From IMG/VR virus record IMGVR_UViG_3300043466_001354: 64,000 nucleotides of DNA; one strand, 5' to 3'. Below, piece by piece: positions 4,825-44,051 of the stretch (position 1 is the first letter of the stretch; each line of letters starts with the position of its first letter). Source of the DNA: a virus (lineage: Duplodnaviria > Heunggongvirae > Uroviricota > Caudoviricetes). The position numbers and the translations under genes were made by a program. The notes under the pieces were generated by a model, which was given only the letters and a program-made list of their open reading frames with translations, was not told where the DNA came from and searched no databases.

Positions 4825-6437
4825 TGGGTGACGGATATCTTGGTAATATACACTTAAAGAAAACTGGTGAACCAATCGAATGGACGCCGGAACTCATAAA
4901 GGAATACGTTAAGTGTTCTGAAGATCCAATATATTTCGCTAAGAAGTATATTAAGATCGTTCACGTTGATCACGGTCTCATTCCTCTCGACATGTATGAC
5001 TATCAGAAAGAGATAGTTGAAAAGATTACAAACAATCGTCGTCTTGCAGTTCTTACGGCTCGCCAGTCTGGTAAAACGACTACGGCCGTCGCAGTGATTC
5101 TACACTACATACTCTTTAACGAGTTTAAGACTGTCGCCATCCTTGCGAACAAGGGAGACGCAGCGAGGGAAGTTCTTGCTCGTATTAAACTTGCGTATGA
5201 AGCTCTACCTAAGTGGCTACAGCAGGGCATTGAAGAATGGAACAAAGGAAACATCGCTCTCGAGAACGGATGTAACGTTTTGGCCGGAACAACGTCTTCT
5301 TCGGCTATTCGTGGTAAGACGGTGTCGTTCCTCTATCTAGACGAGGTAGCCTTCATCGAGGGATACGATGAATTCTTTGCATCGGTATATCCAACCATTT
5401 CATCAGGCGAGTCTACAAAGCTTCTAATGACCTCTACACCAAACGGATTGAACCACTTTTGGAAAACATGTAAGGGAGCCGAAGAAGGCACTAACGGTTA
5501 CGAATACGTTAAAGTCATGTGGTATGACGTCCCTGGCCGTGATGAGAAATGGAGAAAAGAAACGATCGAGTCGCTCGATCACGACGAGGAAAAGTTCAAT
5601 CAGGAATACTGCTGTCAGTTCCTCGGATCTTCTGGTACTCTCATATCGGGTTCAAAGCTCAAAGAGCTGTCATACTCAACACCACTATACGCAAACGAAG
5701 GTCTTTCACAATATGAAAAGCCAGTCGGTAATCATGTGTATGCGATGACTGTTGACGTATCGAGAGGAAAGGGTCTAGACTATTCTACCTTTAGCGTGAT
5801 AGATATAACTTCTATGCCATATAAACAGGTATGTACATTTAGAGATAACTTTGTATCGCCGATTGATTTCGCTTCGATAATATATAGAGTAGGTACCGCA
5901 TATAATGGAGCCTTGATTCTAACTGAGATTAACGACATCGGAGCTCAAGTGTCTGATACTCTTATCATGGATTTTGGATATGAAAATATGCTTTACACTG
6001 AGAACGCTGGAAGAGAAGGAAAGCGTATTTCAAATGGTTTCGGAAAAATAACCGATACAGGAATAAGAACCACAAAATCTGTGAAGGCCGTTGGGTGTTC
6101 TATGCTTAAGCTATTAATCGAACAGAACCAGTTACTCATTAATGATTTTCAAACTATCCAAGAACTATCACGTTTTTCAAAAAAGGCGAACTCATACGAA
6201 GCAGAACCGGGATCTCACGACGATTTAGTTATGAACCTCGTATTATTTGCTTGGTTGACTAACCAGGCGTATTTCAAAGAGATTACTGACATTAATACGC
6301 TGCACAGATTAAGAGAGAAGACCGAAGAACAGATCGAAGATGATCTTCTTCCCTTTGGGTTTATTGATATAGGCGCCGACGACCTAAAACCTGGTTGGAA
6401 GCAGGCATCCGATAAATCAGACAACTGGATGATGTAA
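4824..6437 (+). CDS. 17: Terminase large subunit gp17
   Basis: Walker A RQSGKTT; blocks TSTPNGLNHF, TKAVGCS.LK.LIE, HDDLVM shared with T4 gp17. Confidence 0.95.
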   Translation: MGDGYLGNIHLKKTGEPIEWTPELIKEYVKCSEDPIYFAKKYIKIVHVDHGLIPLDMYDYQKEIVEKITNNRRLAVLTARQSGKTTTAVAVILHYILFNEFKTVAILANKGDAAREVLARIKLAYEALPKWLQQGIEEWNKGNIALENGCNVLAGTTSSSAIRGKTVSFLYLDEVAFIEGYDEFFASVYPTISSGESTKLLMTSTPNGLNHFWKTCKGAEEGTNGYEYVKVMWYDVPGRDEKWRKETIESLDHDEEKFNQEYCCQFLGSSGTLISGSKLKELSYSTPLYANEGLSQYEKPVGNHVYAMTVDVSRGKGLDYSTFSVIDITSMPYKQVCTFRDNFVSPIDFASIIYRVGTAYNGALILTEINDIGAQVSDTLIMDFGYENMLYTENAGREGKRISNGFGKITDTGIRTTKSVKAVGCSMLKLLIEQNQLLINDFQTIQELSRFSKKANSYEAEPGSHDDLVMNLVLFAWLTNQAYFKEITDINTLHRLREKTEEQIEDDLLPFGFIDIGADDLKPGWKQASDKSDNWMM

Positions 6438-6448
6438 AATCTCGTTAT

Positions 6449-6456
6449 TATAAATA
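6449..6456 (+). promoter_or_regulatory. T4-type late promoter TATAAATA upstream of gp18
   Basis: Exact TATAAATA about 55 nt upstream of the gp18 ATG, followed by AAGAAG...AAAGGAG. Confidence 0.6.
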
Positions 6457-6509
6457 AAGAAGAAAAGATTGAAACTTATCAAATAAATCTTACGAAAAAG
6501 GAGAAAAAT

Positions 6510-8369
6510 ATGGTTTTTTCTGTAAGCCCATCCGTCATTGTTAGAGAAGTGGACGCGACTGCCGTAATACCGGCCGTAGCTACACCTCCTGCTGCTGTTG
6601 CCGGTGTGTTTCGCTGGGGACCAACCAACGAACGCATTCTAATCACATCAGAAGATGAACTTGCTTCACGTTTTGGAAAGCCGTTTGCTAACACAACATG
6701 GCAGAATCATGAGACATTCTTTACCGCAGCTGACTTTCTGTCATACTCGAATGCTCTATATATAACTCGAGTAACGTCAGATTCTGCTGCATCTGCTAAC
6801 AGCACATACTTCGAAGCAAAGTATGAAGGTGCACTCGGTAACTCTCTCCAGGTTGCGGTAGTATCTTCCGCTTCGTTTTCTGATACACTTGCTGCGGTTG
6901 GAGACGCGACAGGTATCTTTAACTTTAACTCTAACACGGTAAACCTATCTCTTGAAGACGAGATCACAACTGCGCTTCAAGTAGATGATATAGTTCGTAT
7001 CGGCAATCCAACGATTGGTTATCAAGATTTAATCGTCACCGCTTTCACGGACAACGAAGCAAACACTACGCCGTTTACATACAGTGTTAGTTTTAAGAAC
7101 AGATACACTCTAACGGAAACGGATATGGCGTTTCTTAGCCTAGAAAGAAGATGGGGATACGGCGACCGCGTAGGTGCTGCTCCATCTAACAATACTCTAG
7201 TTCATATCTCTGTTATTGATAAACTAGGAACAATCAGCGGTATCGTAGGAAGCGTTCTTGAACTATACGAAAACGTATCAGTTTCATCGTCTGCAAAACT
7301 TCCAGATGGAACGACAAACTACTATGTTGACGTAATTGCAAACCGTTCCGCATACATTAAAGCGATCGGGACTGACGCTGCGCTAGGCGATAACACGCCA
7401 TCCGCTGCACTCACAGGAACGTTTACATCCCCGATCTATGGAGCTCTAAGCGGTGGTTCTGACGGTGACGGTGAAGCTGCAATCTCTCTTGGAAAAGTTG
7501 CTCTTGGATACGATCTCTATAAGGATCCTAACGAGGTTGACATCTCTGCGCTTCTAACCGGCAAGTCATCAAGTTCTAACCTTGCTAACTATCTAACACA
7601 GAACATAGCAGAGTCACGTAAAGACTGCGTTGTGTATGCGTCTCCGACGTATGCTAACGTTGTAACACCAGCAAATCCAACCGATAAGATGAACAACGCG
7701 ATTGCATTTAGAAATAGCTGTACATCGTCATCCTATCTTGTGATTGACACTGGATACAAGTATCGTTACGATAAGTATAACGATGCATATCGTTGGGTTC
7801 CACTTAACGGTGACATTGCAGGTCTATCAGCTCGCATCGAGTCATGGGAGTCTCCGGCTGGATACAAGCGTGGTGTTATCAAGAACGTCGTAAAGCTTGC
7901 ATTCAATCCAAACAAAGCACAGCGAGATCAACTTTACGGCAGCGACATTAACCCAGTCATCGCGCAGGTTGGGCAAGGTGTTCTTCTGTTCGGTGATAAG
8001 ACTGCTCTTGGAACTGCGACAGGAAGCGCGTTCACTCGCATCAATGTTCGCAGACTCTTCATCACTGTTGAGAAAGCAATCGCCACTGTGGCTGCTTCGT
8101 TCCTCTTTGACTTCAACGACGAGTTCACTCAGACACAGTTCAAGAACTTGGTCGAACCGTTCCTTCGTGACATTCAAGGAAGAAGAGGTATCATAGACTT
8201 TAGAGTCGTCTCTGATGCTACAGTAAATACACCAGACGTAATCGACCGTAACATCTTTAGAGGCAACATCTTCATTAAGCCAGCGCGTTCAATCAACGTG
8301 ATCGAGCTTACATTCGTTGCGACTAGAACCGGTGTAGAATTCGATGAAATCGTTGGTCAGCCACTCTAA
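6510..8369 (+). CDS. 18: Tail sheath protein gp18
   Basis: YRYDKYNDAYRWVPLNGDIAGL.AR...W.SPAGY.RG matches the conserved T4 gp18 block. Confidence 0.9.
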   Translation: MVFSVSPSVIVREVDATAVIPAVATPPAAVAGVFRWGPTNERILITSEDELASRFGKPFANTTWQNHETFFTAADFLSYSNALYITRVTSDSAASANSTYFEAKYEGALGNSLQVAVVSSASFSDTLAAVGDATGIFNFNSNTVNLSLEDEITTALQVDDIVRIGNPTIGYQDLIVTAFTDNEANTTPFTYSVSFKNRYTLTETDMAFLSLERRWGYGDRVGAAPSNNTLVHISVIDKLGTISGIVGSVLELYENVSVSSSAKLPDGTTNYYVDVIANRSAYIKAIGTDAALGDNTPSAALTGTFTSPIYGALSGGSDGDGEAAISLGKVALGYDLYKDPNEVDISALLTGKSSSSNLANYLTQNIAESRKDCVVYASPTYANVVTPANPTDKMNNAIAFRNSCTSSSYLVIDTGYKYRYDKYNDAYRWVPLNGDIAGLSARIESWESPAGYKRGVIKNVVKLAFNPNKAQRDQLYGSDINPVIAQVGQGVLLFGDKTALGTATGSAFTRINVRRLFITVEKAIATVAASFLFDFNDEFTQTQFKNLVEPFLRDIQGRRGIIDFRVVSDATVNTPDVIDRNIFRGNIFIKPARSINVIELTFVATRTGVEFDEIVGQPL

Positions 8370-8394: not shown

Positions 8395-8928
8395 ATGGCC
8401 TTCAATATAAACGAATTCAAATCACAACTAGTAGGAGGAGGAGCGAGACCATCGCTCTTCCAAGTCCAAATTACAAACCCAATCAATGCTATCGCCGACT
8501 TTAAAGTTCCTTTCATGGTAAGAGCAGCTGCTCTTCCTGAGTCAACTACAGGATCATATCAGATACCATACTTTGGACGTTTCATAAAGTATGCTGGAGA
8601 TAGAACGTTTGCCGACTGGACAGCTACAATCATCAACGACGAGGACTTCCTTGTTCGTAACGCGATGGAAGCTTGGTCAAACGCAATTAACTCTCACGAC
8701 TCAAATACGAGAGCTCTACCACAGACTTATAAGTCGAACGCAATCATAACTCAGTACAGCAAAGATGGTAGACCTCTTCGCACGTATGTATTCGAAGGAA
8801 TTTATCCTATCAGTATCGGTGCGATACCGGTTGCTTGGGAAAACACAGATCAAATTGAAAACTTTGATGTCACATTCCAATACGATATGTGGAGAGTTGA
8901 AGGCTCGACTGGCATTTCCACTACTTAA
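8395..8928 (+). CDS. 19: Tail tube protein gp19
   Basis: RP.LFQV.I and AGDRTF.DWT.T..NDE blocks shared with T4 gp19. Confidence 0.9.
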   Translation: MAFNINEFKSQLVGGGARPSLFQVQITNPINAIADFKVPFMVRAAALPESTTGSYQIPYFGRFIKYAGDRTFADWTATIINDEDFLVRNAMEAWSNAINSHDSNTRALPQTYKSNAIITQYSKDGRPLRTYVFEGIYPISIGAIPVAWENTDQIENFDVTFQYDMWRVEGSTGISTT

Positions 8929-9000
8929 TAGTTGATAAAGGAATTGCTAATTGGACTGTTTTGTAATACCGTTTGGTAAATCACAGAACGATATATTTCA

Positions 9001-9019
9001 CGGCGGGATCAAATCCCGC
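9001..9019. terminator. GC-rich hairpin GGCGGGAT-CAA-ATCCCGCC between gp19 and gp20, with no U-tract
   Basis: 8-bp perfect stem; may be a processing or attenuator hairpin rather than an intrinsic terminator. Confidence 0.35.
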
Positions 9020-9120
9020 CACATGATAGATATTATGAAAGACGCTGCGACCTCTTTAGGCACTGCTGATTGTTTTATCAATAAGATACTAAAGAATGGC
9101 GAAGCAAGGAGATTGAAATA

Positions 9121-10788
9121 ATGCGTGTATTTGGATTTGAAATCAAAAGAGAAATCGGCGGAGCCGAAGAAGAAAGAGCTGTCTCTTTTGTAGAACCTAA
9201 CAACGACGAAGGCGCAATCACCATAGGAAACTCTCTAGGAGGATCCTATGGTATCGCTATTAATATGGAAGGCGACGCCAAGACTGAAGGCGAGCTTATC
9301 ACCAAGTATCGTGGAATGGTAATGCAGCCTGAGATTGCACAGGCCGTAGACGAAATTGTAAACGAAGCAATTAACGTCGATAGTCATGAGAATGTTGTAG
9401 AGATTATTCTTGACGATACAGAATTACCAGACAAAGTAAAAGATCGTATCGTCGAAGAGTTTGAAGAAGTGCTACGTCTTCTCGACTTTTCCAACTACGG
9501 CTATGATATTTTTCAGAAGTTCTATGTAGATGGAAGATTGAATTATCATATCATTATTGATAACGAAGATCTGAAAGCTGGCATCAAAGAGCTACGCTAC
9601 ATTGACCCACGTAAGCTTCGTCTCGTCAAAGAGATGGACGAGAAGTCAAAGGATCCGCACTCCGGTATACCTCTTAAGAAGATCAAGAAGGAGTACTATC
9701 TATACTCCGATTCTGGTTTTGGTTCAAAGTCAACAACGAGCAATGTTAACTCTGGTCAGACGGTTCAGGGATACCGCATCGCAAAAGATTCCGTTGCTCG
9801 TGTAACGTCTGGTCTCATGAATGAGACGAATTCGCTTGTACTATCGCACCTGCATCCTGGTATTAAACCTCTAAACCAACTGCGTATGCTTGAAGATGCG
9901 ACTGTTATCTATACGATTACCCGTGCTCCGGAAAGAAGAATTTTCTATATCGACGTCGGTCAGTTACCAAAGGCTAAGGCTGAGCAGTATCTACACGATA
10001 TGATGACTCGCCATAAGAACAAACTACAGTACGACTCCGACAGCGGTGACATTACAGACGGTCGTAAGTTTATGACAATGACTGAAGACTTCTGGTTCCC
10101 TCGTCGTGGCGGCGAGCGTTCCACAGAAGTTGACATTCTTGCTGGTGGATCCGCGCCCGCTCTAAGCGGTGACGAAAACCTTCAGTACTTCCAAAGAAAG
10201 CTTTATAAGTCCCTTAAAGTTCCGATATCACGTTTAGAACCAGAGACTATGTATAGCTTCGGCAGAGTGTCCGAGATATCAAGAGACGAACTCAAATTTA
10301 GTAAGTTCATTCGCCGTCAAAGACTACGTTTCTCTGGTATATTTGATCTCTTCTTAGAAAAGCAACTCATTCTTAAAGGTATTCTCGATCCTGAGGAATG
10401 GGCTGACATAAAGAATAAGATACGATATGACTTCATGAAAGATAACTACTTCGAAGAACTCAAGCAGACGGAAATACTTCGTGAAAAAGTAACGATGCTT
10501 AGAGATATCGAGGAACAGATCGGTAAGTACTACTCAAGAGAATGGGTTATCAAAAACGTTCTATTCATGTCAGATGAAGACATACGTGAAATGAAAAAGC
10601 AGATCAAGAAAGAAACTGACGAAGGCTTGTACGACGTTGGTATGCCTGATGATGAACAACCTCCAGCACCAGCAGATCAGCCGCCAGAAAATCAGCAACA
10701 GCCTCCTCAGAATGATCAAGAGGCCGAAGAATCATTAAAAGTTATAAATAATAAAGTAAAACCATTCAAAAGAGGGCTTAAAAGATGA
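9121..10788 (+). CDS. 20: Portal protein gp20
   Basis: YTITRAPERRIFYIDVG, MTMTEDFWFPRR.G...TEVD.L.G, SRDELKFSKFIRR match T4 gp20. Confidence 0.95.
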   Translation: MRVFGFEIKREIGGAEEERAVSFVEPNNDEGAITIGNSLGGSYGIAINMEGDAKTEGELITKYRGMVMQPEIAQAVDEIVNEAINVDSHENVVEIILDDTELPDKVKDRIVEEFEEVLRLLDFSNYGYDIFQKFYVDGRLNYHIIIDNEDLKAGIKELRYIDPRKLRLVKEMDEKSKDPHSGIPLKKIKKEYYLYSDSGFGSKSTTSNVNSGQTVQGYRIAKDSVARVTSGLMNETNSLVLSHLHPGIKPLNQLRMLEDATVIYTITRAPERRIFYIDVGQLPKAKAEQYLHDMMTRHKNKLQYDSDSGDITDGRKFMTMTEDFWFPRRGGERSTEVDILAGGSAPALSGDENLQYFQRKLYKSLKVPISRLEPETMYSFGRVSEISRDELKFSKFIRRQRLRFSGIFDLFLEKQLILKGILDPEEWADIKNKIRYDFMKDNYFEELKQTEILREKVTMLRDIEEQIGKYYSREWVIKNVLFMSDEDIREMKKQIKKETDEGLYDVGMPDDEQPPAPADQPPENQQQPPQNDQEAEESLKVINNKVKPFKRGLKR

Positions 10789-24226: not shown

Positions 24227-24568
24227 CTACTCTAGTAATTCACCAATGTCAATCATTTCTTTGTCGATTTCTTCATTTTCTATAAATTCATCTGCAAAGT
24301 CTTGCAGAGGATGATATATGTCGCTTGCCATTAAATGAAGCGAGCGAATTGATTCGAGAAGAAGAATGATGGACGGGTAGTACCTTTCGGTGTCTTGTTC
24401 GAACCTGCACCCAGACCTTACCATCTCGATAAGAACAAGGTTCCAAAGACTTTCTGCGACGTCGTTCGAAAAACTCGTTCTGTATTCCGTAAGTTTTTCG
24501 GATAACTCTTCGAGTGATTGTGGTGGTGAGTCGAGTTTCATTCGAGGGAATTTTATGATTTCAGCCAT
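24227..24568 (-). CDS. Hypothetical protein
   Basis: 113-aa acidic ORF. Confidence 0.4.
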   Translation of the reverse strand: MAEIIKFPRMKLDSPPQSLEELSEKLTEYRTSFSNDVAESLWNLVLIEMVRSGCRFEQDTERYYPSIILLLESIRSLHLMASDIYHPLQDFADEFIENEEIDKEMIDIGELLE

Positions 24569-25514
24569 TACTTAAACGCCTCAACAAGTTAATCCAAGAG
24601 TTCTTAAAGGTATTTATGCTATTCCGTGGAAGGTTACATGCGTCCGAATTCGTTATCTTATTAATGAAGTTTTCGTCGATACGCTGGGCATCAAGTATGT
24701 TCTTTACTGCAGAAAAAGAACGGTTCGCATGCTCGTTTCTATCCTCAGTATATTCATACATTAGAGTAGCGTTAGAAGACGTTTCTGGCAGAGCTGCATA
24801 ATTAGGATGGATCACCAATACACCAGAACGTATCGCTTCTATCATCGCGATACAAGACGTTTCCTGCCATATTGAAGGGAAAAGGAAGATATGAGATTCC
24901 TTCAGAGCTTCGAGAACTTCTTCGTTACTCTTTGATCCATGATATGTAATTCGTGGATGAGCTTTGAGTTTTTCGAACAAGTTTTCATATGGCTTATCAC
25001 GTTGTTCCCAACCATAAATCTTAAAGGATGAGTATACATCCAGATGAATGTTGTCGTATTGTTTGCTGAGAGCATCAAAGATCGGATAGACGAGTTCCAA
25101 TCCACGATGCGGAGTCGTGTGATAGATGAAACGAATTTGATCGGTTCTCTTTTGATGCGGGTGATACTCCAACTCAATCGCATTGTGTATTACGCTACAC
25201 TTCGAGTATGGAATCTGATAGATGAGCATGTATTGATCACGCTGCCAATACGAAACGAAAACAAAGTGATCGAACTTTTGCCAACCGCCGTCACGAAGAA
25301 CAGCATTCTCTGGATCAAAAACTAAATCATGGCAGTAGAAAATGTTTTTCACATCTTTGTGCATCTCACGAGGCCTCGAGAAGTGAACTGCAAAATTCTG
25401 TAGAAGTTCCGGCGGAACATTATTAAGCAGCCTCTCTCGCATCATCTCAGTGCCTCCACGAGCATTGCGAGAGAGGTTTGTATCTACAATGTTTCCCTTG
25501 TAAATACAGCTCAT
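24561..25514 (-). CDS. Glycosyltransferase (GT-B fold, GT4-like C-terminal domain)
   Basis: C-terminal IFLFPSIWQETSCIAMIEAIRSGVLVI resembles the GT4 E-x7-E donor-binding region. Confidence 0.5.
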   Translation of the reverse strand: MSCIYKGNIVDTNLSRNARGGTEMMRERLLNNVPPELLQNFAVHFSRPREMHKDVKNIFYCHDLVFDPENAVLRDGGWQKFDHFVFVSYWQRDQYMLIYQIPYSKCSVIHNAIELEYHPHQKRTDQIRFIYHTTPHRGLELVYPIFDALSKQYDNIHLDVYSSFKIYGWEQRDKPYENLFEKLKAHPRITYHGSKSNEEVLEALKESHIFLFPSIWQETSCIAMIEAIRSGVLVIHPNYAALPETSSNATLMYEYTEDRNEHANRSFSAVKNILDAQRIDENFINKITNSDACNLPRNSINTFKNSWINLLRRLSNG

Positions 25515-27713: not shown

Positions 27714-28649
27714 CTACTTATGATATGAAGTGTACCAATCAACGAATGAAGCAACACCTTCTTCGATATTGACTGAAGGTTGATAACCATACTTTACAAG
27801 TTTTGATACGTCAGACTGAGTCTCAAGACAATCGCCTGCTTGGTGTTCGATATACTCAATATCAGCTTTCTTTCCAGTCGCCGTTTCGATTGCTTCTACG
27901 AAACGTTTAAGAGTGACTTGCTGAGTGTTACCTATGTTAAAGATCTCGTTCGAAGGAATACTGTCGTTTTCCATCACTATCTGAACACCTTTCACGATAT
28001 CATCAATGTACGTGAAATCGCGCTTCATGTTTCCATAGTTATACAGCTTTATCTTTTCACGATTGAGAATGTTCTTTGTGAAGTCATAGAGAGCCATGTC
28101 GGGTCTACCCCAAGGTCCATATACTGTGAAGAAACGAAGACCGATGTCGTTCAGGCCAGACATCTTAAACTGGCATTCATTAACAAACTTAGTGTATCCA
28201 TACGGACTTATCTGATGAAGAACCGGTTCGTCTTCTCTCCATGGAAGTTGTTCGATTCCAGCGCAGACGCTAGAAGTAGATGCATAGACGACTTTTTCTA
28301 TGCCGTTTTCTTTGCACGCATCAATAACGTTTTGAGTTCCGTCTATGTTTACCTTATGGTAGATACCAGGGTTCTTCATAGAATATCTTACACCCGCCAT
28401 CGCTGCTAGGTGTACAACAATGTCTGGCTTCGCACTCTTAATAAAGCGAGATAGAGCTTCTTTATGAATGATATCTACTAGGTGTACTGGAGGCAAGCGA
28501 AAATGCTTAACTCTATCCACCTTAAGTGTAGCTGGATAGTAATCACAATAGTTGTCAATACCAATTATCTCGTAACCGCAATCGCGAAGACGAGCGGATA
28601 GTGAAGCTCCAATAAATCCTGCTGCACCAGTTACAAGAACTCTTTTCAT
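27714..28649 (-). CDS. NAD-dependent sugar-nucleotide epimerase/dehydratase (UDP-glucuronate or UDP-glucose 4-epimerase-like SDR)
   Basis: GAAGFIG Rossmann motif, catalytic YGYTK (YxxxK) and extended-SDR length. Confidence 0.8.
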   Translation of the reverse strand: MKRVLVTGAAGFIGASLSARLRDCGYEIIGIDNYCDYYPATLKVDRVKHFRLPPVHLVDIIHKEALSRFIKSAKPDIVVHLAAMAGVRYSMKNPGIYHKVNIDGTQNVIDACKENGIEKVVYASTSSVCAGIEQLPWREDEPVLHQISPYGYTKFVNECQFKMSGLNDIGLRFFTVYGPWGRPDMALYDFTKNILNREKIKLYNYGNMKRDFTYIDDIVKGVQIVMENDSIPSNEIFNIGNTQQVTLKRFVEAIETATGKKADIEYIEHQAGDCLETQSDVSKLVKYGYQPSVNIEEGVASFVDWYTSYHK

Positions 28650-37081: not shown

Positions 37082-38038
37082 TTACTGGGCTGGCTTAGCA
37101 ACAACGTCCATGAATGGAACAGTCGAGTCTGGGATCATAGTGGTAGGAAGAGCACCGTTCCACTTTTCAGCTTGAACTAGAGCAATCAAACCTGCGTTAT
37201 CCTTCAGAGCTTCTGCTTTCGCCTTAATCGCGCTTGCTTCTGCTTCACCTTGAATACGAGTTGCTTCTGCGGCCGCAACTGCTTGAGCTAGTTGAGCGTC
37301 GGCTTGTGCCTGTGCCTGAGTCACGACGATCTCAGCCTGAACCTTTTCACGTTCTGCGTTCTGCCGAACCTTTTGCACTTCGACTTCTGCAAGCATACGA
37401 GCTTCAATCGATTGTTCATAAGCATCAGAGAAGTCGATGTTCTCAATTTGAACCGACTCAACGATGATAGGACCAATTACAGCTTTCTGGATTGCCATCT
37501 GAACTTCTGCAGCAAGACGTTCACGTTCCTGAATAGCGGTTGCTGCGTTGAACTTACCAAAGACGTTCTTGACTTCTTCAAGAACCTGACGATCAAGCAA
37601 GCGAGAGATCACGCCAGCTTCGCCACCATATTCACGATAGATCGTCTCAACTTGATCTGCAGGGAAGCGATAGTTAACAGACAGGTTTAGACCCGCAGTC
37701 TGTTGATCACGAGAGTAAGCAAGGATGTTCTCGTACAACTGAGCCTGTGATTGAACAGAAATATCAACCACCTTTTCGATCAAAGGGATTTTAAATCCAA
37801 GACCTGGTTCTGCAGTACCAACCACGGCACCGTTACGAAGAGTTACACCACGGTAACCTTCATCAACAGTATACCACGATCCGCCAATTACAGTCAGTGC
37901 AGTAAGACCGACGACAGTAGCGATAGTTCCACCAACGATAGCATTCATTTTCATTTTCCTTTTACGTTCATTATATTGATTTAGTGCTGCTTCATACTCA
38001 GCTTTAGTGTTAAAGTCATAGCGATCAGGTTTAAACAT
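37082..38038 (-). CDS. SPFH/band-7 (prohibitin/HflC-like) membrane protein
   Basis: N-terminal TM, an SPFH-domain-like region, then an A/Q/E-rich coiled coil. Confidence 0.75.
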   Translation of the reverse strand: MFKPDRYDFNTKAEYEAALNQYNERKRKMKMNAIVGGTIATVVGLTALTVIGGSWYTVDEGYRGVTLRNGAVVGTAEPGLGFKIPLIEKVVDISVQSQAQLYENILAYSRDQQTAGLNLSVNYRFPADQVETIYREYGGEAGVISRLLDRQVLEEVKNVFGKFNAATAIQERERLAAEVQMAIQKAVIGPIIVESVQIENIDFSDAYEQSIEARMLAEVEVQKVRQNAEREKVQAEIVVTQAQAQADAQLAQAVAAAEATRIQGEAEASAIKAKAEALKDNAGLIALVQAEKWNGALPTTMIPDSTVPFMDVVAKPAQ

Positions 38039-38256: not shown

Positions 38257-38781
38257 TCATGCATTTTTCTTCTCCATAATTACATTGCAAAAGATGTCGA
38301 CAATGGTGATCTTATCGAAGCCTTCATCGAGTTCAGGTTCAACATAGGAATCAGCCATAGCTTCAATGATGTGATGAGGGATAGTCTTCCCAGGACGAGA
38401 ATCAAGGCGACGATCGAGTTCAGCCCACTCTTCAGCAGTCTGAGGAACACGAACGCACCAACATTCCTTGTGATAGTTCTTAGGGAACTTCGACAAGATG
38501 CTCTTACGCTTCTTCGAAGACATATTAGTCTGATCCCAGTACACATCAATCCCTGCGCTGATAGCAATTGCAAGCACATTATTCATATGCTTAGTTGCTT
38601 CGTTGATGTGATCACCGAACACGTCGTCGTAAGACTTACCAGCTTCTTTGGCTCGAGCTTCGATATATGCATCAGTGCTATACACAAAGACGTCTCCACC
38701 AAACTCCGGATCGTCAACAAACGACAATCGAGTCGACTTACCTGAACCAGGCAGACCTACGAGAACTTCAACCTTAGGCAT
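38257..38781 (-). CDS. Polynucleotide 5'-kinase (P-loop kinase domain of T4 Pnk-like, stand-alone)
   Basis: VGLPGSGKST P-loop and WDQTN...R..W parallel the T4 Pnk kinase domain; start set at MPKVEV with a GAGG RBS. Confidence 0.55.
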   Translation of the reverse strand: MPKVEVLVGLPGSGKSTRLSFVDDPEFGGDVFVYSTDAYIEARAKEAGKSYDDVFGDHINEATKHMNNVLAIAISAGIDVYWDQTNMSSKKRKSILSKFPKNYHKECWCVRVPQTAEEWAELDRRLDSRPGKTIPHHIIEAMADSYVEPELDEGFDKITIVDIFCNVIMEKKNA

Positions 38782-39052
38782 CTTCGCCAACCTCTGCATC
38801 TTCAAAAATCTTGTTAAAGGTAATCTCGTTGTATTCGCCACGGCCGGTCATGCCGAGTTCATAAAGTCGGGCCATCATCTTTGCATCGTGTTCAGTCTTG
38901 ATATACATCGATGTGTCGAGATCGCCGTGCAACATACCTACTTCAGTTCTAAAGAAGTCAACTACATACATAGTTTTGGTATAGGAACCGTCAAAGTTGC
39001 CGTAGCAGACGTCGACTTCAACTTCTTCGGGGGTCACGATTGCGATAGCCAT
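38774..39052 (-). CDS. Hypothetical protein
   Basis: 92-aa ORF downstream of a promoter-like element. Confidence 0.4.
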   Translation of the reverse strand: MAIAIVTPEEVEVDVCYGNFDGSYTKTMYVVDFFRTEVGMLHGDLDTSMYIKTEHDAKMMARLYELGMTGRGEYNEITFNKIFEDAEVGEDA

Positions 39053-39115: not shown

Positions 39116-39874
39116 TTAAACTTTTTTTCGAACAGACTCATTATATTTTACGGCAGCTTCTAGCGTCTGTAGCTCGACGCCTGAGTTCTTTGCCGTCTGC
39201 AGAATCGCCGCGGTATCCTTTGGAAAACACGCTCCGCCCCAGCCTCTATCGTTCTCATTTACAAAAGTATGGCTCTCACCGATACGAGAGTCTAACGTGA
39301 CACCAGAGCGAACCGACTCGTAATCCAATCCGAGCGTTTCACAGAAATCGTAGATCTCGTTGAAGAAGCTACACTTTGCCGCAAGAAACGAGTTTCGAAA
39401 ATACTTGATGGCAATTGCGTGCTTTGGCTTACATACAGTTATGCTGATGTCTGGATACACCGTCGTGTAAAAATCTAACCAGTATTGAACGTTACCGCCA
39501 GCCAAGAACGCATGAGTGAGGTTCTTAAGGTCGTCGTCTGCGCTTGCAGCTCGAAGAAATTCTGGACTAAATGTGATGGAGTGTTCAGGAAAGTTTCTTT
39601 CGAGAGTTTCCCATCCCTCCATCGATATCGTGCTCTTAATGAGAATTGGAGCTTCTTTTGGAATGTCTTGAATTACATTATAGATTATGCTCATATCACA
39701 GCTTCCATCTTCAGATGATGGAGTCGAAACACAGACGATAGCACCACTAATGTTTTCTATGTCTTTGATACGAATATTGCTGAAGGCCGGATCTACGATA
39801 GACATTTCGTGATGAGGGCTAAACGCTTTATAGTGAGCTTTACCAACGAAGCCGTATCCTAATAGTACAATCAT
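39116..39874 (-). CDS. ugd: UDP-glucose/GDP-mannose 6-dehydrogenase family protein (short; lacks the C-terminal domain)
   Basis: N-terminal GYGFVG NAD motif and catalytic GWGGACFPKD; only 252 aa versus about 390-450. Confidence 0.55.
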   Translation of the reverse strand: MIVLLGYGFVGKAHYKAFSPHHEMSIVDPAFSNIRIKDIENISGAIVCVSTPSSEDGSCDMSIIYNVIQDIPKEAPILIKSTISMEGWETLERNFPEHSITFSPEFLRAASADDDLKNLTHAFLAGGNVQYWLDFYTTVYPDISITVCKPKHAIAIKYFRNSFLAAKCSFFNEIYDFCETLGLDYESVRSGVTLDSRIGESHTFVNENDRGWGGACFPKDTAAILQTAKNSGVELQTLEAAVKYNESVRKKV

Positions 39875-39884
39875 GGTTTATCCT

Positions 39885-40892
39885 CTAGTTAGTTTTACAG
39901 TTTATAAGATTGTCTCGAAAAATGTTCCAAGCGTTTCCCCAATCCCATTTCATGCTGAATTTGTATACTGATTCTCTATCGAGGTCAAGAGATTTTTTAA
40001 TAGCGATAGTGATATCCTCATCCATATAACCAGTTACATCTTGATCTATTACGTCTAATGGTCCTTGCACAGGATAAGCAGCGACCGGAGTACCGCATGC
40101 CATTGCCTCAATCATCACCAATCCAAATGTATCCCAACGACTAGGAAACACAAAAACATCAGCCTGTTGATAATAATGCGCGAGTTCAGCACCACGTTTG
40201 GCACCTACAAAGTTCACGTAAGGATATTGCTTCTTGTATGTTTCTAACATAGGACCATCGCCTACGATAGTTTTAACTGCATTGGGGTAGTTTATCTCAA
40301 GAAAAGCTTCCAGATTTTTTTCTTTGCTTACTCGACTCACGCAAACGAGGTTAATGTGCGAGCATGGTTCTTTCACTGCCGGTTTGAATATATCCCTATC
40401 AACTCCTCGAGTCCAATGAATAACATTGTTATTAAATCCATGCGCATGAAGTTCATCGACCATTGATTTTGTCGTAGTGAGTACCTTATTGCTATTCTTA
40501 TGGAACCAGCGCACAACTGCCCAAGTAATTCCTTCAGGAATTCCTAGTAACGTCCTTACACCTTCAGGAAACTTAGTATGGTAAGCAGTATTGTACTTAA
40601 TCCCACGTATTGCAAGATACCTTCTAGCAGACATACCCATAGGACCTTCTGTGGCGATGTGTATATAATCCGGATCAATCTTCTTGATCTCTTTCCCAAC
40701 AACCCAAGGAGGTGCCCAGGCAAGCTTAACTTCATTGTACTTTGGGCAATCAATATGGCCGTACATCCCGGGATGAATATAATCAACAGTATAACCGTCG
40801 CGAATCGCATACGTCTCAATATTTTTGTAGGTCGTAACCACACCATTAATCTGATTCGGTAAGTTGTCTGTAACTATTAAGATCTTCGGCAT
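39885..40892 (-). CDS. GT4-family glycosyltransferase (Agt/SqdX-like glycolipid synthase candidate)
   Basis: GT-B architecture with a GT4 C-terminal E-x7-E region (FPSRWDTFGLVMIEAMACGTPV). Confidence 0.65.
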   Translation of the reverse strand: MPKILIVTDNLPNQINGVVTTYKNIETYAIRDGYTVDYIHPGMYGHIDCPKYNEVKLAWAPPWVVGKEIKKIDPDYIHIATEGPMGMSARRYLAIRGIKYNTAYHTKFPEGVRTLLGIPEGITWAVVRWFHKNSNKVLTTTKSMVDELHAHGFNNNVIHWTRGVDRDIFKPAVKEPCSHINLVCVSRVSKEKNLEAFLEINYPNAVKTIVGDGPMLETYKKQYPYVNFVGAKRGAELAHYYQQADVFVFPSRWDTFGLVMIEAMACGTPVAAYPVQGPLDVIDQDVTGYMDEDITIAIKKSLDLDRESVYKFSMKWDWGNAWNIFRDNLINCKTN

Positions 40893-41616
40893 AATGCACT
40901 ATCTCCCATCTTCCATCAAAGTGTTCTACCAGAGCGGTGGCACTCTCGACCCAGTCGCCATCGTTCATGTATATAACACCATTTATTTCTTTTATTTCAG
41001 CATGATGAATGTGACCACAAATTATTCCGTCATATCCATGTTGCTTACAATAGGCAGCTAGATGTTCTTCGTAACGATTGATAAAGTTTAACGCGTGTTT
41101 AGTATTCTGTTTTAGATATTTACTTAAACTCCAATAGTCCATACCAAACAAACTTCTTACTCGATTAAACTGAACATTGGCATATATCATAGCGTCATAC
41201 AAAGTATCTCCAATGTGCATCAACCATTTTTTATCATGCATCAATACGTCAAAGAAGTCACCATGAATAACCAGATAACGTTTGCCGTCTAAACCTATGT
41301 AGTCTTGTCTGTTAGTTACTTTAATATTACCGAAGCTGATATCAAAGTTTAAAAACTTACGGCCTGCTTCATCGTGATTACCTAATATGTATTCTACTCT
41401 AGTGCCACGCTTAGCTGCCGTGAGTATTCTGCGTATCACATTGGCATGACTCTGTGGAAAGTACCAACGTTTCTTTAAGCGCCAACCATCCAGCATATCA
41501 CCAACTAGGAATAGGTTTTCGCTTGTGTTGTTTTTTAAGAAAACACAGAGGGCGTCTGCTTGACACCCTCTGGTTCCTAAATGCACATCACTTATGAAGA
41601 TGCTTTTATATTTCAT
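40846..41616 (-). CDS. Calcineurin-like metallophosphoesterase (PlcP/LpxH-like)
   Basis: Metallophosphoesterase motifs DVHLG, GDMLDGW, GNHD, HGD, GHIHH; 256 aa; overlaps the GT4 start by 47 nt. Confidence 0.65.
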   Translation of the reverse strand: MKYKSIFISDVHLGTRGCQADALCVFLKNNTSENLFLVGDMLDGWRLKKRWYFPQSHANVIRRILTAAKRGTRVEYILGNHDEAGRKFLNFDISFGNIKVTNRQDYIGLDGKRYLVIHGDFFDVLMHDKKWLMHIGDTLYDAMIYANVQFNRVRSLFGMDYWSLSKYLKQNTKHALNFINRYEEHLAAYCKQHGYDGIICGHIHHAEIKEINGVIYMNDGDWVESATALVEHFDGRWEIVHYAEDLNSYRQLTESD

Positions 41617-41618
41617 TC

Positions 41619-42584
41619 TTATTTAAGAGCAGAAACTTCAGCCTGAGTAGCTGCAAGTTCTGGATCTGGAACCAATCCATACTGTGCAAGAGCGCCATCA
41701 GGACCTGCCATCTCATCACTCACGAAGAACTCGATGTATTCCTTCAGACCAGGAATGACGCTGAGGTGAGCGTTCTTCACGTAGAAGTAAAGTGGACGGC
41801 TGATTGGATAGTCACCGCTTGAGATGGTTTCTACGCTTGGTGCCACGCCACTTACCGTGGCAACTTCTAGTTTATCAGTGTTGTTCTGATAGAAGCTAAG
41901 ACCAAACACACCTAGCGATGTTTTATTAGCATCAAGACGAGCAAGTGTTTCTGTGTAGTCGCCATCGATGTCAACTGCTGCACCGTCAGTTCTTACTTTC
42001 ACACAAGCTTTCTTTTGATCGTCATCGAGTTTCTCAACACCGAGAGCTGCTTTACAACCTTCTTCCATCACCTTTACATCGAACACTTCACGAGTGCCGT
42101 GTTTGGTACCTGGAATGTATGCAAGGATTGCTACTTCTGGAAGAGTCGAGTCGACTTCACTCCAGAGTTTTGCAGTGCTCGACTCGTGTAGAGCGCTATA
42201 GAGTTGTTCGACTGTTAGATTATCGATATTAAGTTGATCGATGTTCGATGCAAACACGATACCGTCATAACCAATACGAACCTCAGTCACTTCACCAATT
42301 GCTTCTTCACACTTGGCTCTTTCTTCATCCTTCATCTTTGAAGAACTATTTGCGATGTCAACAGTGTTTTCACCAACACCTTCGCAGAGCTTCTTACGGC
42401 CTGCACCCGAACCACCACCTTCAACTACTGGCGACGGAAAATCAAAATTTTCACCAAATGCCTCTGCGACAATGGTTGCATATGGTAGTACTGTAGACGA
42501 TCCTGTTACTTGAACGTTATCTCTTGCAAACGCAGTCGTGGACGCCAAAGCAATAATTGCCGCCGCTGATAGTAAAGCTTTCAT
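41619..42584 (-). CDS. pstS: Phosphate ABC transporter substrate-binding protein PstS
   Basis: Signal peptide plus TGSSTVLP, GGGSGAG, FGLSFY, YPISRPLYFYV PstS hallmarks. Confidence 0.9.
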   Translation of the reverse strand: MKALLSAAAIIALASTTAFARDNVQVTGSSTVLPYATIVAEAFGENFDFPSPVVEGGGSGAGRKKLCEGVGENTVDIANSSSKMKDEERAKCEEAIGEVTEVRIGYDGIVFASNIDQLNIDNLTVEQLYSALHESSTAKLWSEVDSTLPEVAILAYIPGTKHGTREVFDVKVMEEGCKAALGVEKLDDDQKKACVKVRTDGAAVDIDGDYTETLARLDANKTSLGVFGLSFYQNNTDKLEVATVSGVAPSVETISSGDYPISRPLYFYVKNAHLSVIPGLKEYIEFFVSDEMAGPDGALAQYGLVPDPELAATQAEVSALK

Positions 42585-42643
42585 ATAATTCTCCTTTGTT
42601 TAAATATCCCTATTCATTGGGGATATTACTATATTATATTGAA

Positions 42644-42664
42644 GATGTAACAATCGTATAACAG
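42644..42664 (-). promoter_or_regulatory. Pho-box-like direct repeat CTGTTAT-N4-TTGTTAC upstream of pstS
   Basis: Two 7-bp repeats at 11-bp periodicity, with a TATAAT-like -10 about 10 bp downstream and a 5'-UTR hairpin at 42604-42628. Confidence 0.45.
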
Positions 42665-43347: not shown

Positions 43348-43530
43348 TTATCCCTCGTATTTTTCTTTTAGTCGAGCAAGTTCGGCTCGTTCTTTACGTT
43401 CTTTGTCTTTACGCAGCCATCTGATATAGATATCTTGGTCGTATGTACAATCCTTATTGCAGCATTCCCAACCGATAGGACCACAATCGGTGAGTGGCTG
43501 TTTACACCCTTCACATACTAACTCAGTCAT
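43348..43530 (-). CDS. Zinc-ribbon small protein
   Basis: CxxC...CC..C cysteine pattern. Confidence 0.4.
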   Translation of the reverse strand: MTELVCEGCKQPLTDCGPIGWECCNKDCTYDQDIYIRWLRKDKERKERAELARLKEKYEG

Positions 43531-44051
43531 TCGATTACCTCGTTTGGAAACTGTTCTGTTGGTACAAAAACATACTCAGGCTTTTCTGGTTGTGTCCACG
43601 GAAACTCAATAAACACTCGGCTTTCACGACCCGTATAGTAGCTCTTATATGGTTTACCTTCGTCAATATCTGGCGATGAATACCATTCCCAAAACACTCG
43701 ACCATCCATCCAGTATGGTCGCCCATCTTCATCCTTAAAGACAGAACTGTTACGTTTGTTCTGCCACATATCTGCGCTGACTTCCGTCCACTCGTCAGAT
43801 TCGCCAGTCAAAGGAGCAATAGGTTTCCATGATGCGAGCTTCTCAAACAAAGCTACTGCATACGGTGCCGACATACCGCTGTGTCCTTGTTCTGAGAACA
43901 CTTTGAGAAGCTCAAGCGTTCCTTCTGCAAGCCAACGGTTTGGTCCATCTTCTGGATCATTAATATCATATCCAGCCAGTTTAAGTTCGGCTTCCGCCCA
44001 TTTCAACATGTTGCTCATTTGCTTTCCTCTATTAGATTTTTCAAGCGCCAC
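43527..44051 (-). CDS. Hypothetical protein
   Basis: 174-aa ORF. Confidence 0.45.
   Translation of the reverse strand: MALEKSNRGKQMSNMLKWAEAELKLAGYDINDPEDGPNRWLAEGTLELLKVFSEQGHSGMSAPYAVALFEKLASWKPIAPLTGESDEWTEVSADMWQNKRNSSVFKDEDGRPYWMDGRVFWEWYSSPDIDEGKPYKSYYTGRESRVFIEFPWTQPEKPEYVFVPTEQFPNEVIE

Follow-up and report, generated by a model that had tools for sequence, protein, structure and literature searches.

A predicted phosphate-starvation operon for host lipid remodelling, pstS-plcP-agt, in a T4-like phage

Phage particles are rich in phosphorus and their marine hosts are often limited by it, a problem to which the known phage answers are genes for uptake and regulation, namely pstS, phoA, and phoH. 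Could a phage also draw on the phosphorus held in the membranes of its host? The question is raised by four adjacent genes in a viral metagenomic record (IMG/VR IMGVR_UViG_3300043466_001354), of which we analysed a stretch of 64,000 nucleotides, hereafter the window. The genes encode a phosphate-binding protein (PstS), a metallophosphoesterase (MPE), a family 4 glycosyltransferase (GT4), and a short protein that resembles UDP-glucose 6-dehydrogenase (UGDH), the product of ugd. From the letters of the sequence, it had been proposed that together they form a phosphate-stress cassette in which the MPE acts like the bacterial phospholipase C PlcP and the GT4 like Agt, the enzyme that glycosylates the resulting diacylglycerol. 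Our analysis upholds the core of this proposal, and we consider it likely that the first three genes are a phage-encoded, phosphate-starvation-responsive operon, pstS-plcP-agt. This reading is carried by the separation of the MPE from its relative LpxH, by the synteny of plcP and agt behind Pho boxes in bacteria, by the retention of 14 residues that are essential in a characterised Agt, and by a Pho-box-like site ahead of the phage operon.

All four open reading frames are consecutive and run in the same direction on the minus strand (Table 1), and the domains predicted for each were recovered by Pfam. Read from the sequence, only 2 nt separate the stop codon of pstS from the ATG of the MPE gene. 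The GT4 gene begins within its predecessor, the anticipated overlap of 47 nt being present, and its Shine-Dalgarno sequence (GGGAG) is located inside the 3' end of the MPE gene, an arrangement that makes translational coupling of the two probable. A gap of 10 nt then leads to the ugd-like gene, which has an AGAGGA site ahead of its start. The window itself belongs to a T4-like myophage, with genes for terminase, tail sheath, portal, gp23-type capsid, RnlA, ribonucleotide reductase (RNR), and Dda helicase. Phage genes flank the cassette on both sides, and the GC content is ~42% across the window and likewise within the cassette. A megablast search of the cassette against catalogued phages returned no match.

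The second gene was described at the outset as a 256-residue calcineurin-type enzyme with complete DxH, GD, GNH(D/E), and GH motifs, and this description held. The product matches Pfam Metallophos (E = 3e-13), and its metal ligands (D10, H12, D40, N80-H81, H118, H202, and H204) are complete and invariant in an alignment of 157 relatives, made up of 80 bacterial sequences, 76 metagenomic viral sequences, and the sequence of the window. The bacterial set came from a scan of one genome per species, which yielded 80 loci with 46-64% identity to the phage protein. Most belong to Alphaproteobacteria (Hyphomonas, Pelagibacteraceae, Mesorhizobium, Bradyrhizobium, Labrenzia, and Caulobacter), with some from Beta- and Gammaproteobacteria.

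Current databases give these proteins another name. Homologues are called LpxH and "glycosyltransferase involved in cell wall biosynthesis" by JGI, and GenBank names the genes of phages Mosig and S-SRM01 in the same way, the MPE of Mosig being annotated as "UDP-2,3-diacylglucosamine hydrolase." Likewise, a study of HIMB59 labels the bacterial genes LpxH and RfaG (PMC10734472). Were these names right, the MPE would be the diphosphatase of UDP-2,3-diacylglucosamine known as LpxH, the GT4 would be a glycosyltransferase of the lipopolysaccharide (LPS) core or cell wall, and the phage would be modifying lipid A or LPS. LpxH is indeed the best match of the MPE in NCBIfam and among solved folds, but the scores fall far below the equivalog cut-offs (46.3 bits versus 134 for NF003743; 39.1 versus 190 for TIGR01854), and a phmmer search of PDB sequences did not retrieve LpxH at E < 0.01, the only return being Vps29 at E ~0.008. 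In the trimmed alignment, for which the LpxH proteins of Escherichia coli and Klebsiella served as outgroups, the MPE is 20% identical to these two and 52-60% identical to its best bacterial homologues. Pairwise identity among the bacterial homologues spans 42-97% (median, 55), and characterised PlcPs share just 46-47% identity (PMC8528852). Motif III reads GNHD in all 80 bacterial sequences, all 76 metagenomic viral sequences, and the window, versus GNRD in both LpxH proteins, which stand on a long separate branch of a neighbor-joining tree. The MPE thus does not cluster with LpxH, whereas such clustering had been named as an outcome that would refute the original prediction. Many alphaproteobacteria with a plcP-like MPE gene use LpxI rather than LpxH. 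Together with the Pho boxes and agt linkage of the bacterial orthologues and the diacylglycerol pocket of the GT4, both described below, these results make LpxH a very improbable identity for the phage enzyme.

The resemblance in fold is nevertheless informative. The solved structures nearest to the AlphaFold model of the MPE are complexes of LpxH with lipid X (5k8k and 5b4a; E = 4e-9, TM score 0.56-0.60), and residues ~121-192 of the model form a helical cap. These features point to an enzyme that handles lipids and fit a lipid substrate. With the Pelagibacteraceae genes located directly upstream of Agt orthologues, the MPE shares 50-52% identity by tblastn, at E values of ~1e-80 to 1e-81 that are relative to a search of the candidate stretches only; the criterion used for PlcP by Sebastian et al. 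in 2016 was a BLASTP E value below 1e-40 against MED193_17359 (PMC4796936). We predict that the MPE is a PlcP-like, Mn-dependent phospholipase C, which would release diacylglycerol and a phosphorylated head group.

The adjoining GT4 offers a sharper comparison, as the SAR11 member of the Agt family, GTcp, has been dissected by mutation. At 335 residues, the phage protein has the GT-B architecture, for which ~334 residues are expected, and contains Pfam Glyco_transf_4 (E = 8e-17) and Glycos_transf_1 (E = 5e-23). In GTcp, catalysis depends on a His104-Asp256 dyad in which Asp replaces the usual GT4 Glu; the UDP-sugar motifs are GRVAxEKN and FPSxTDTFG; and activity is abolished by mutation of residues in the donor site (G16, G82, G85, R190, K195, T257, F258, G259, and E264) or in the diacylglycerol pocket (T162, R163, and W320) (PMC8231724). 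We transferred this numbering with Pelagibacteraceae orthologues as a ruler, which matched the published positions exactly. The phage GT4 retains all 14 essential residues (G17, G83, G86, H105, T161, R162, R187, K192, D254, T255, F256, G257, E262, and W318). The dyad aligns as H105-D254, with the clade-specific Asp kept, and so are the pocket residues T161, R162, and W318. Its motifs, SRVSKEKN and FPSRWDTFG, deviate by G to S and T to W at positions not reported as essential. In NCBIfam, the protein reaches the cut-off of no other GT4 equivalog, those of LPS and cell-wall glycosyltransferases included, a result in keeping with the original prediction. On these residues, we predict an agt/GTcp-like enzyme that would convert diacylglycerol and a UDP-sugar to glycosyl-diacylglycerol. 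As a separate observation, among 41 viral Agt-like GT4s there are 12 that carry Glu in place of catalytic Asp256, where the window protein has Asp; in GTcp, the D256E substitution cuts activity by more than 90% (PMC8231724).

The pairing of these two genes is found in bacteria as well. In 60 of the 80 bacterial MPE loci, the gene next downstream, on the same strand, encodes a full-length homologue of the phage GT4, with 37-46% identity by tblastn. This adjacency corresponds to the "type 2" arrangement that Sebastian et al. described for SAR11 HTCC7211 and others (PMC4796936). The original prediction went further and held that the bacterial operon has exactly the four-gene layout of the phage. 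That part held for plcP-agt alone. The flanks contain pstS in only some of the 80 loci, including five from Pelagibacteraceae, where it begins 2-3.6 kb beyond agt, and one from Phenylobacterium, and a ugd-like gene was found in none of the 80. Canonical Pho boxes are strongly enriched in the bacterial loci: within 200 nt upstream of the MPE gene, 35 of 80 have a box that scores 10 or more out of 14, compared with 1 of 80 in a coding control, and the best-scoring boxes lie ~55-90 nt from the start codon. This enrichment indicates that the bacterial homologues are genes of the Pho regulon, as PlcP is.

Phosphate is also the theme of the first gene in the phage operon. Its product was taken for PstS from the start, and the assignment is borne out by a PBP_like_2 fold (PF12849; E = 8e-54 over residues 15-291) and by an N-terminal segment, read from the translation, that resembles a signal peptide (MKALLSAAAIIALASTTAFA). 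A score of 156 bits against the TIGR02136 cut-off of 206.6 marks it as a divergent member of the family. Identity is 40-41% to PstS in the five Pelagibacteraceae loci and 39-41% to PstS of Pelagibacter phage Mosig.

Upstream of pstS, a region of 101 nt contains, in order, a Pho-box-like site, a TATAAT hexamer, a hairpin, the AAGGAG ribosome-binding site, and the ATG. Across the 64-kb window there is a single match to the pattern CTGTYAY-N4-YTGTYAY, where 0.02 occurrences are expected. The TATAAT hexamer has no accompanying -35 element; it was missed by our promoter consensus scan because the scan demands a -35 hexamer. Promoters activated by PhoB typically lack one. In relatives, the CTGTTAY repeats are kept upstream of pstS (viral contigs L171/L172 and L091) though the remaining intergenic sequence cannot be aligned. 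There, the arrangements TTGTAAC-AGCA-TTGTTAT-AAAA-CTGTTAC (L171) and TAGTTAC-AAAA-CTGTTAC (L091) have the same 11-nt period and are each followed by a -10-like hexamer. We infer that the site is bound by PhoB, which would place the phage operon under Pho-regulon control.

Two further sets of structures in these regions deserve mention in their own right. First, at the same relative position as the hairpin of the window, ~45-70 nt upstream of pstS, L171 has by eye an inverted repeat of another sequence (AATAAGGAA...TTCCTTATT) that is followed by a T-run. Second, 45-85 nt into the MPE gene of the window, there is a strong hairpin with a T-run (positions 41546-41572, minus strand; 11 pairs; folding of a 65-nt stretch gives -26.7 kcal/mol). 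A comparable hairpin and U-run are present in L173, L171, L091 (in another pairing register), and L089, and weaker forms in L002, L005, L092, and one Pelagibacteraceae gene. Such an element could be an attenuator that sets the ratio of pstS to the lipid genes, or a by-product of the conserved coding sequence for RGCQADALC-FLK.

How widely is the module shared among phages? We found genes for relatives of the MPE in at least 573 IMG/VR stretches and counted gene contexts in the best 80 of these loci (L089-L168). An Agt-like GT4 stands immediately downstream, often overlapping, in 38 of the 80 and within a few kilobases in about six more. In 27 others, the place is taken by a protein of 244 residues resembling families GT2 and GT21 (for example, L005, positions 8707-9441), so that 65 of the 80 have some glycosyltransferase directly downstream. 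The GT2 partner matches generic GT2/GT21 families only. Because Agt1 and Agt2 of Pseudomonas aeruginosa are both Agt homologues (PMC8528852), it has no characterised counterpart in that pathway, and it may be an alternative diacylglycerol glycosyltransferase. In the tree, the viral MPEs largely form one coherent clade, within which those with a GT4 partner and those with a GT2 partner are intermixed; two sequences from Hyphomonas metagenome-assembled genomes (MAGs) also fall there. The complete trio of pstS, MPE, and GT4 recurs in L171/L172, a T4-like contig of 98.7 kb, and in L173. The L173 cassette is 98% identical in PstS and MPE and 89% in GT4, yet its neighbourhood differs (gp59 and gp32) and there is no ugd-like gene. 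Recurrence of the trio in different neighbourhoods indicates that pstS-MPE-GT4 behaves as a mobile cassette. Between phage lineages, dN/dS is 0.11-0.15 for all three genes (0.12 for pstS versus L171, 0.13 for the MPE, and 0.11-0.15 for the GT4), a mark of purifying selection. Among cultured phages, Pelagibacter phage Mosig EXVC030M has a 56%-identical MPE gene divergently oriented next to pstS, with no glycosyltransferase (L001, positions 4897-6732).

These patterns also bear on whether the cassette belongs to the phage at all. Its genes are clearly of bacterial origin, and the presence of Hyphomonas sequences inside the viral clade could be taken to mean that host DNA was misassembled onto phage DNA, or that the cassette is a very recent, nonfunctional capture. 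However, T4-type genes flank the module on either side in many independent phage contigs, and close MPE homologues are found on phage-like contigs as long as 347 kb, among phage genes of the T4 type or of other kinds. Moreover, the genes are overlapping and tightly packed, their GC content matches the rest of the window, the viral copies largely group together, and selection has kept dN/dS at ~0.1-0.15. An artefact or a dead capture is scarcely credible on this evidence. The Hyphomonas sequences themselves are the two best bacterial matches of the MPE (62-64%; L009 and L010, both at positions 6001-6735), are without an adjacent GT4, and both group within the viral clade. Their origin may be a prophage, transfer from a phage, or phage DNA that was binned with a bacterium.

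Several observations weigh against the view that the operon serves phosphate starvation. Only one of the 80 viral MPE loci has pstS within its flank, and most phage MPE-GT modules are therefore not tied to a gene for phosphate uptake. Nor is a Pho-box-like motif enriched upstream of viral MPE genes in general, where 11 of 87 reach a score of 10 compared with 10 of 87 in the control. The product expected from PlcP is a phosphorylated head group and not free phosphate, which means that a further phosphatase step is required. The model of the MPE has moderate confidence (pLDDT 77), and membership of the PlcP family, as a reading of sequence, leans on bacterial orthologues as proxies for the characterised PlcPs. 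Finally, the nearest cultured capsids, at 64-67% identity, come from T4-like phages of the Sinorhizobium phiM12 type, Stenotrophomonas, Methylophilales, and Synechococcus. Beside the count of Pho-box-like motifs, we noted a direct repeat, TTGTAAT-N4-CTGTAAT, 24-36 nt upstream of the MPE ATG in L089, L090, L099, L153, L155, L162, and L167, which are mostly of the GT2 type. It may be a variant Pho box or plain shared ancestry, the overall frequency being not above control.

The main rival accepts the same enzymology and assigns it another benefit. Rather than scavenging phosphorus, the phage would condition the membrane or the cell surface, either by blocking superinfection through the lipid environment of the receptor or by keeping the envelope stable until lysis. 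The 79 viral loci without pstS in their flank suggest that the module spreads independently of phosphate uptake, and the exchange of GT4 and GT2 partners among the viral members suggests that selection acts on the lipid produced. In addition, two reports connect the remodelling of host lipids with phage attachment and with the composition of membrane proteins (PMC9938194, PMC9804370), and the glycosyltransferases of pelagimyophages have been interpreted as anti-superinfection genes (PMC7029224). Yet in the window and its relatives the module is joined to pstS behind a Pho-box-like promoter, the bacterial orthologues are Pho-regulon genes, and the two benefits are mutually compatible. As a replacement for phosphorus scavenging, we consider membrane conditioning quite improbable.

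The preferred reading, a phosphate-starvation operon, draws on the gene order, orthology, conservation of catalytic residues, bacterial synteny, promoter motif, purifying selection, and wide phage distribution that we observed; we infer from them the enzyme activities, the control by PhoB, the sugar donor, what becomes of the freed phosphorus, and the benefit to fitness. In an infected cell starved of phosphorus, phosphorylated PhoB of the host would bind the Pho-box-like site upstream of pstS and drive the operon. Exported PstS would speed the capture of phosphate, for which there is precedent in cyanophages and pelagimyophages. The PlcP-like MPE would then cleave the glycerophospholipids of the host to yield diacylglycerol along with a phosphorylated head group, and the Agt-like GT4 would glycosylate the diacylglycerol from a UDP-sugar. 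In this manner, the bilayer would be refilled with a glycolipid free of phosphorus, and the phosphorus of the lipids would enter metabolism, most plausibly for the synthesis of phage nucleotides.

Where does the fourth gene fit? The original prediction assigned it to the UDP-sugar 6-dehydrogenase family and gave it the task of supplying UDP-glucuronic acid (UDP-GlcA) to Agt. The family assignment stands in part. The protein has the NAD-binding and central catalytic domains, with a match to the central Pfam domain UDPG_MGDP_dh at E = 6e-25 and a weak match to the N-terminal one. It has no match to PF03720, the C-terminal UDP-sugar-binding domain, and ends at about residue 305 of the 446-residue 4a7p; the ~40-residue insert found in the N-terminal domain of UGDHs is also absent. 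It is thus no normal UGDH, and its TIGR03026 score (NDP-sugar dehydrogenase) is 133.5 bits versus a cut-off of 189.8. When we looked for a split enzyme, no neighbouring open reading frame carried the UDP-binding domain. The gene belongs to a family with 4443 matches, mostly on phage-like contigs, and nearly all of the best 120 are 247-260 residues long, a consistency that speaks against a truncation artefact. Across the family, neither the GxGxxG motif nor the catalytic residues K157, N161, C216, and D220 vary. In the window protein, as read from the sequence, Ala replaces the second Glu of the PEFLREG motif. Its structural model, with a pLDDT of 92.5, overlays the N-terminal and central UGDH domains (TM score 0.85 by query, ~0.5 by target), and all top structural matches listed are UGDHs.

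If the protein is nonetheless a functional UDP-glucose 6-dehydrogenase, the UDP-GlcA it makes would allow Agt to form an anionic glucuronosyl-diacylglycerol. The invariant catalytic residues and the structural matches agree with this, as do the location of the gene in this operon, just behind the GT4 and with a Shine-Dalgarno sequence of its own, and the acceptance of UDP-GlcA by GTcp/Agt (PMC8231724). Members of the family are also found beside a glycosyltransferase in L089/L090 (as MPE-GT2-ugd-like), L148, and Microbacterium phages. In conflict with it are the loss of the entire UDP-sugar-binding domain, for which no separate gene stands nearby, the low TIGR03026 score, and the altered PEFLREG motif. 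Linkage is rare: a ugd-like gene is present in four of the 80 viral MPE loci, a short UGDH-like gene has an MPE beside it in just two of 80 viral short-UGDH loci (L177-L256), and, as noted, neither the bacterial plcP loci nor the near-identical L173 cassette has one. In L208 (positions 1-1338), a pstS 68% identical to that of the window is followed directly by a ugd-like gene, without MPE or GT4, which suggests a shared insertion hot spot, or that the lipid pair is gained and lost as a module. The usual company of the family is different again, consisting in 36-42 of the 80 short-UGDH loci of cytidylyltransferase-like, PMM-like, short-UGDH, and conserved 242-residue genes, with or without an epimerase and often beside DNA polymerase (B). 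We therefore regard a working UDP-glucose 6-dehydrogenase in service of Agt as unlikely, and as a part of the original prediction the supply of UDP-GlcA was not sustained; it is possible but unsupported. Most likely, the gene is an accessory nucleotide-sugar gene that landed beside the cassette and not an established part of the pathway.

The partners that would be expected of the family were also sought. No PMM-like, cytidylyltransferase-like, or 242-residue partner gene was found in the window; the 242-residue protein itself has no Pfam match and is unrelated to the glycosyltransferase of Microbacterium phages. The window does have a second sugar cluster, with a GT4-type gene (24561-25514, minus strand), a GalE-like SDR epimerase/dehydratase (27714-28649, minus strand), and unannotated neighbours, which is a possible alternative consumer of the product of a nucleotide-sugar dehydrogenase.

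Table 1. Positions of the cassette genes, of the elements upstream of pstS, and of example clusters containing the short UGDH-like gene
Feature	Sequence	Coordinates	Strand	Remarks
pstS	window	42584..41619	minus	321 aa
Metallophosphoesterase (MPE), plcP-like	window	41616..40846	minus	256 aa
GT4 glycosyltransferase, agt/GTcp-like	window	40892..39885	minus	335 aa
ugd-like gene, short UGDH-like dehydrogenase	window	39874..39116	minus	252 aa
Pho-box-like site CTGTTAT-ACGA-TTGTTAC	window	42664..42647	minus	two 7-mers, 11-nt period; putative host PhoB site
-10-like hexamer TATAAT	window	42638..42633	minus	8 nt downstream of Pho-box-like site; read from sequence
Hairpin AATATCCCC-AATGAAT-AGGGATATT	window	42603..42627	minus	between putative promoter and pstS ribosome-binding site
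pstS ribosome-binding site AAGGAG	window	42596..42591	minus	
Short-UGDH cluster, example	L174	2671-5536		
Short-UGDH cluster, example	L175	3282-5540		
Short-UGDH cluster, example	L176	2878-6254		

Three other genes near the cassette are of note. About 1 kb upstream, in the same variable region, is a homologue of the Type I Thoeris inhibitor Tad3, an anti-defence gene (174 aa; 43527-44051, minus strand; PF25185, E = 7e-39). Just downstream are an AAA_33/Zeta-toxin-like P-loop kinase (38257-38841, minus strand) and an SPFH/Band-7 membrane-scaffold protein (37082-38038, minus strand). A similar Zeta/AAA kinase is located ~2 kb upstream of the MPE-GT4 pair in viral contigs L002-L004.

Set against known systems, the cassette is closest to the bacterial PlcP-Agt pathway, whose members include SMc00171 of Sinorhizobium meliloti, MED193_17359 of Phaeobacter, PB7211_983 and PB7211_960 (the latter being GTcp) of SAR11 HTCC7211, Atu2297 of Agrobacterium, and PA3219, PA3218, and PA0842 of P. 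aeruginosa. With that pathway it shares an MPE followed by an Agt-clade GT4, a Pho-box-type promoter, and every essential GTcp residue, and the tblastn identities (46-64% for the MPE and 37-46% for the GT4) are within or near the spread among bacterial members. Unlike the bacterial genes, which are ~30-170 nt apart, the phage MPE and GT4 genes overlap; they reside in a T4-like phage in one operon with pstS and an extra short UGDH-like gene, and other phages replace the GT4 with a GT2. The pstS gene resembles those already known as auxiliary metabolic genes of cyanomyophages and of the pelagimyophages Mosig and VG-LRMED-216 in encoding a periplasmic phosphate-binding protein behind a Pho-box-like promoter. 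In those phages, pstS is under the control of host PhoBR, and the rationale given is a greater supply of phosphate during infection (PMC12379486). Unlike those genes, pstS of the window heads an operon with predicted lipid-remodelling enzymes. To LpxH, the MPE is linked by its calcineurin-type fold, helical lipid-binding cap, best structural matches, and current database name, and it is set apart by low identity, failure at both equivalog cut-offs, the GNHD motif, and other genomic partners and regulation. The fourth protein, for its part, has in common with Ugd (PDB 4a7p, 3gg2, and 1dli) a Rossmann NAD-binding domain and a central domain that holds the catalytic Lys, Asn, Cys, and Asp; it differs in lacking the C-terminal domain and the insert and in forming a separate conserved family of ~250 residues.

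Although the enzymes belong to known families, their phage-borne, pstS-linked, Pho-box-preceded form and their wide viral spread appear to be new. We found no description of plcP as an auxiliary metabolic gene in literature searchable in full text, subscription-only literature being outside the search. Phage-encoded PlcP goes unmentioned in the examined literature on PlcP and Agt, on pelagimyophages, and on phages Mosig and Melnitz, and broader keyword searches gave nothing relevant. The pelagimyophage literature treats phage glycosyltransferases and "UDP-glucose 6-dehydrogenase" as related to LPS (PMC7029224).

We also advance a broader reading, tentatively, as an idea that may well prove too wide. 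PlcP-type phospholipase C and a diacylglycerol glycosyltransferase of the GT4 or GT2 kind, encoded in hundreds of phage lineages, might be a widespread but unrecognised strategy of large aquatic phages. Some of them would be wired to pstS and the host Pho system, and host membranes would be stripped of phosphorus for virion DNA. On this account, part of the environmental plcP signal until now ascribed to bacteria would be viral, and the short UGDH-like protein might be a new two-domain nucleotide-sugar dehydrogenase that acts with a partner protein.

If the reading of the operon is true, phage PlcP-Agt would be a tactic different from uptake and regulation, that is, the mining of host membrane phospholipids while sugar lipids keep the bilayer intact. 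Mosig, a cultured phage with an MPE homologue beside pstS, is a ready experimental system for such work. Hundreds of phage genes now labelled "LpxH" or "cell wall glycosyltransferase" would need re-annotation. More generally, lipid remodelling, counts of plcP, and glycolipid signals in phosphorus-poor waters would have to be reread, with infected cells and viral genes among their contributors.

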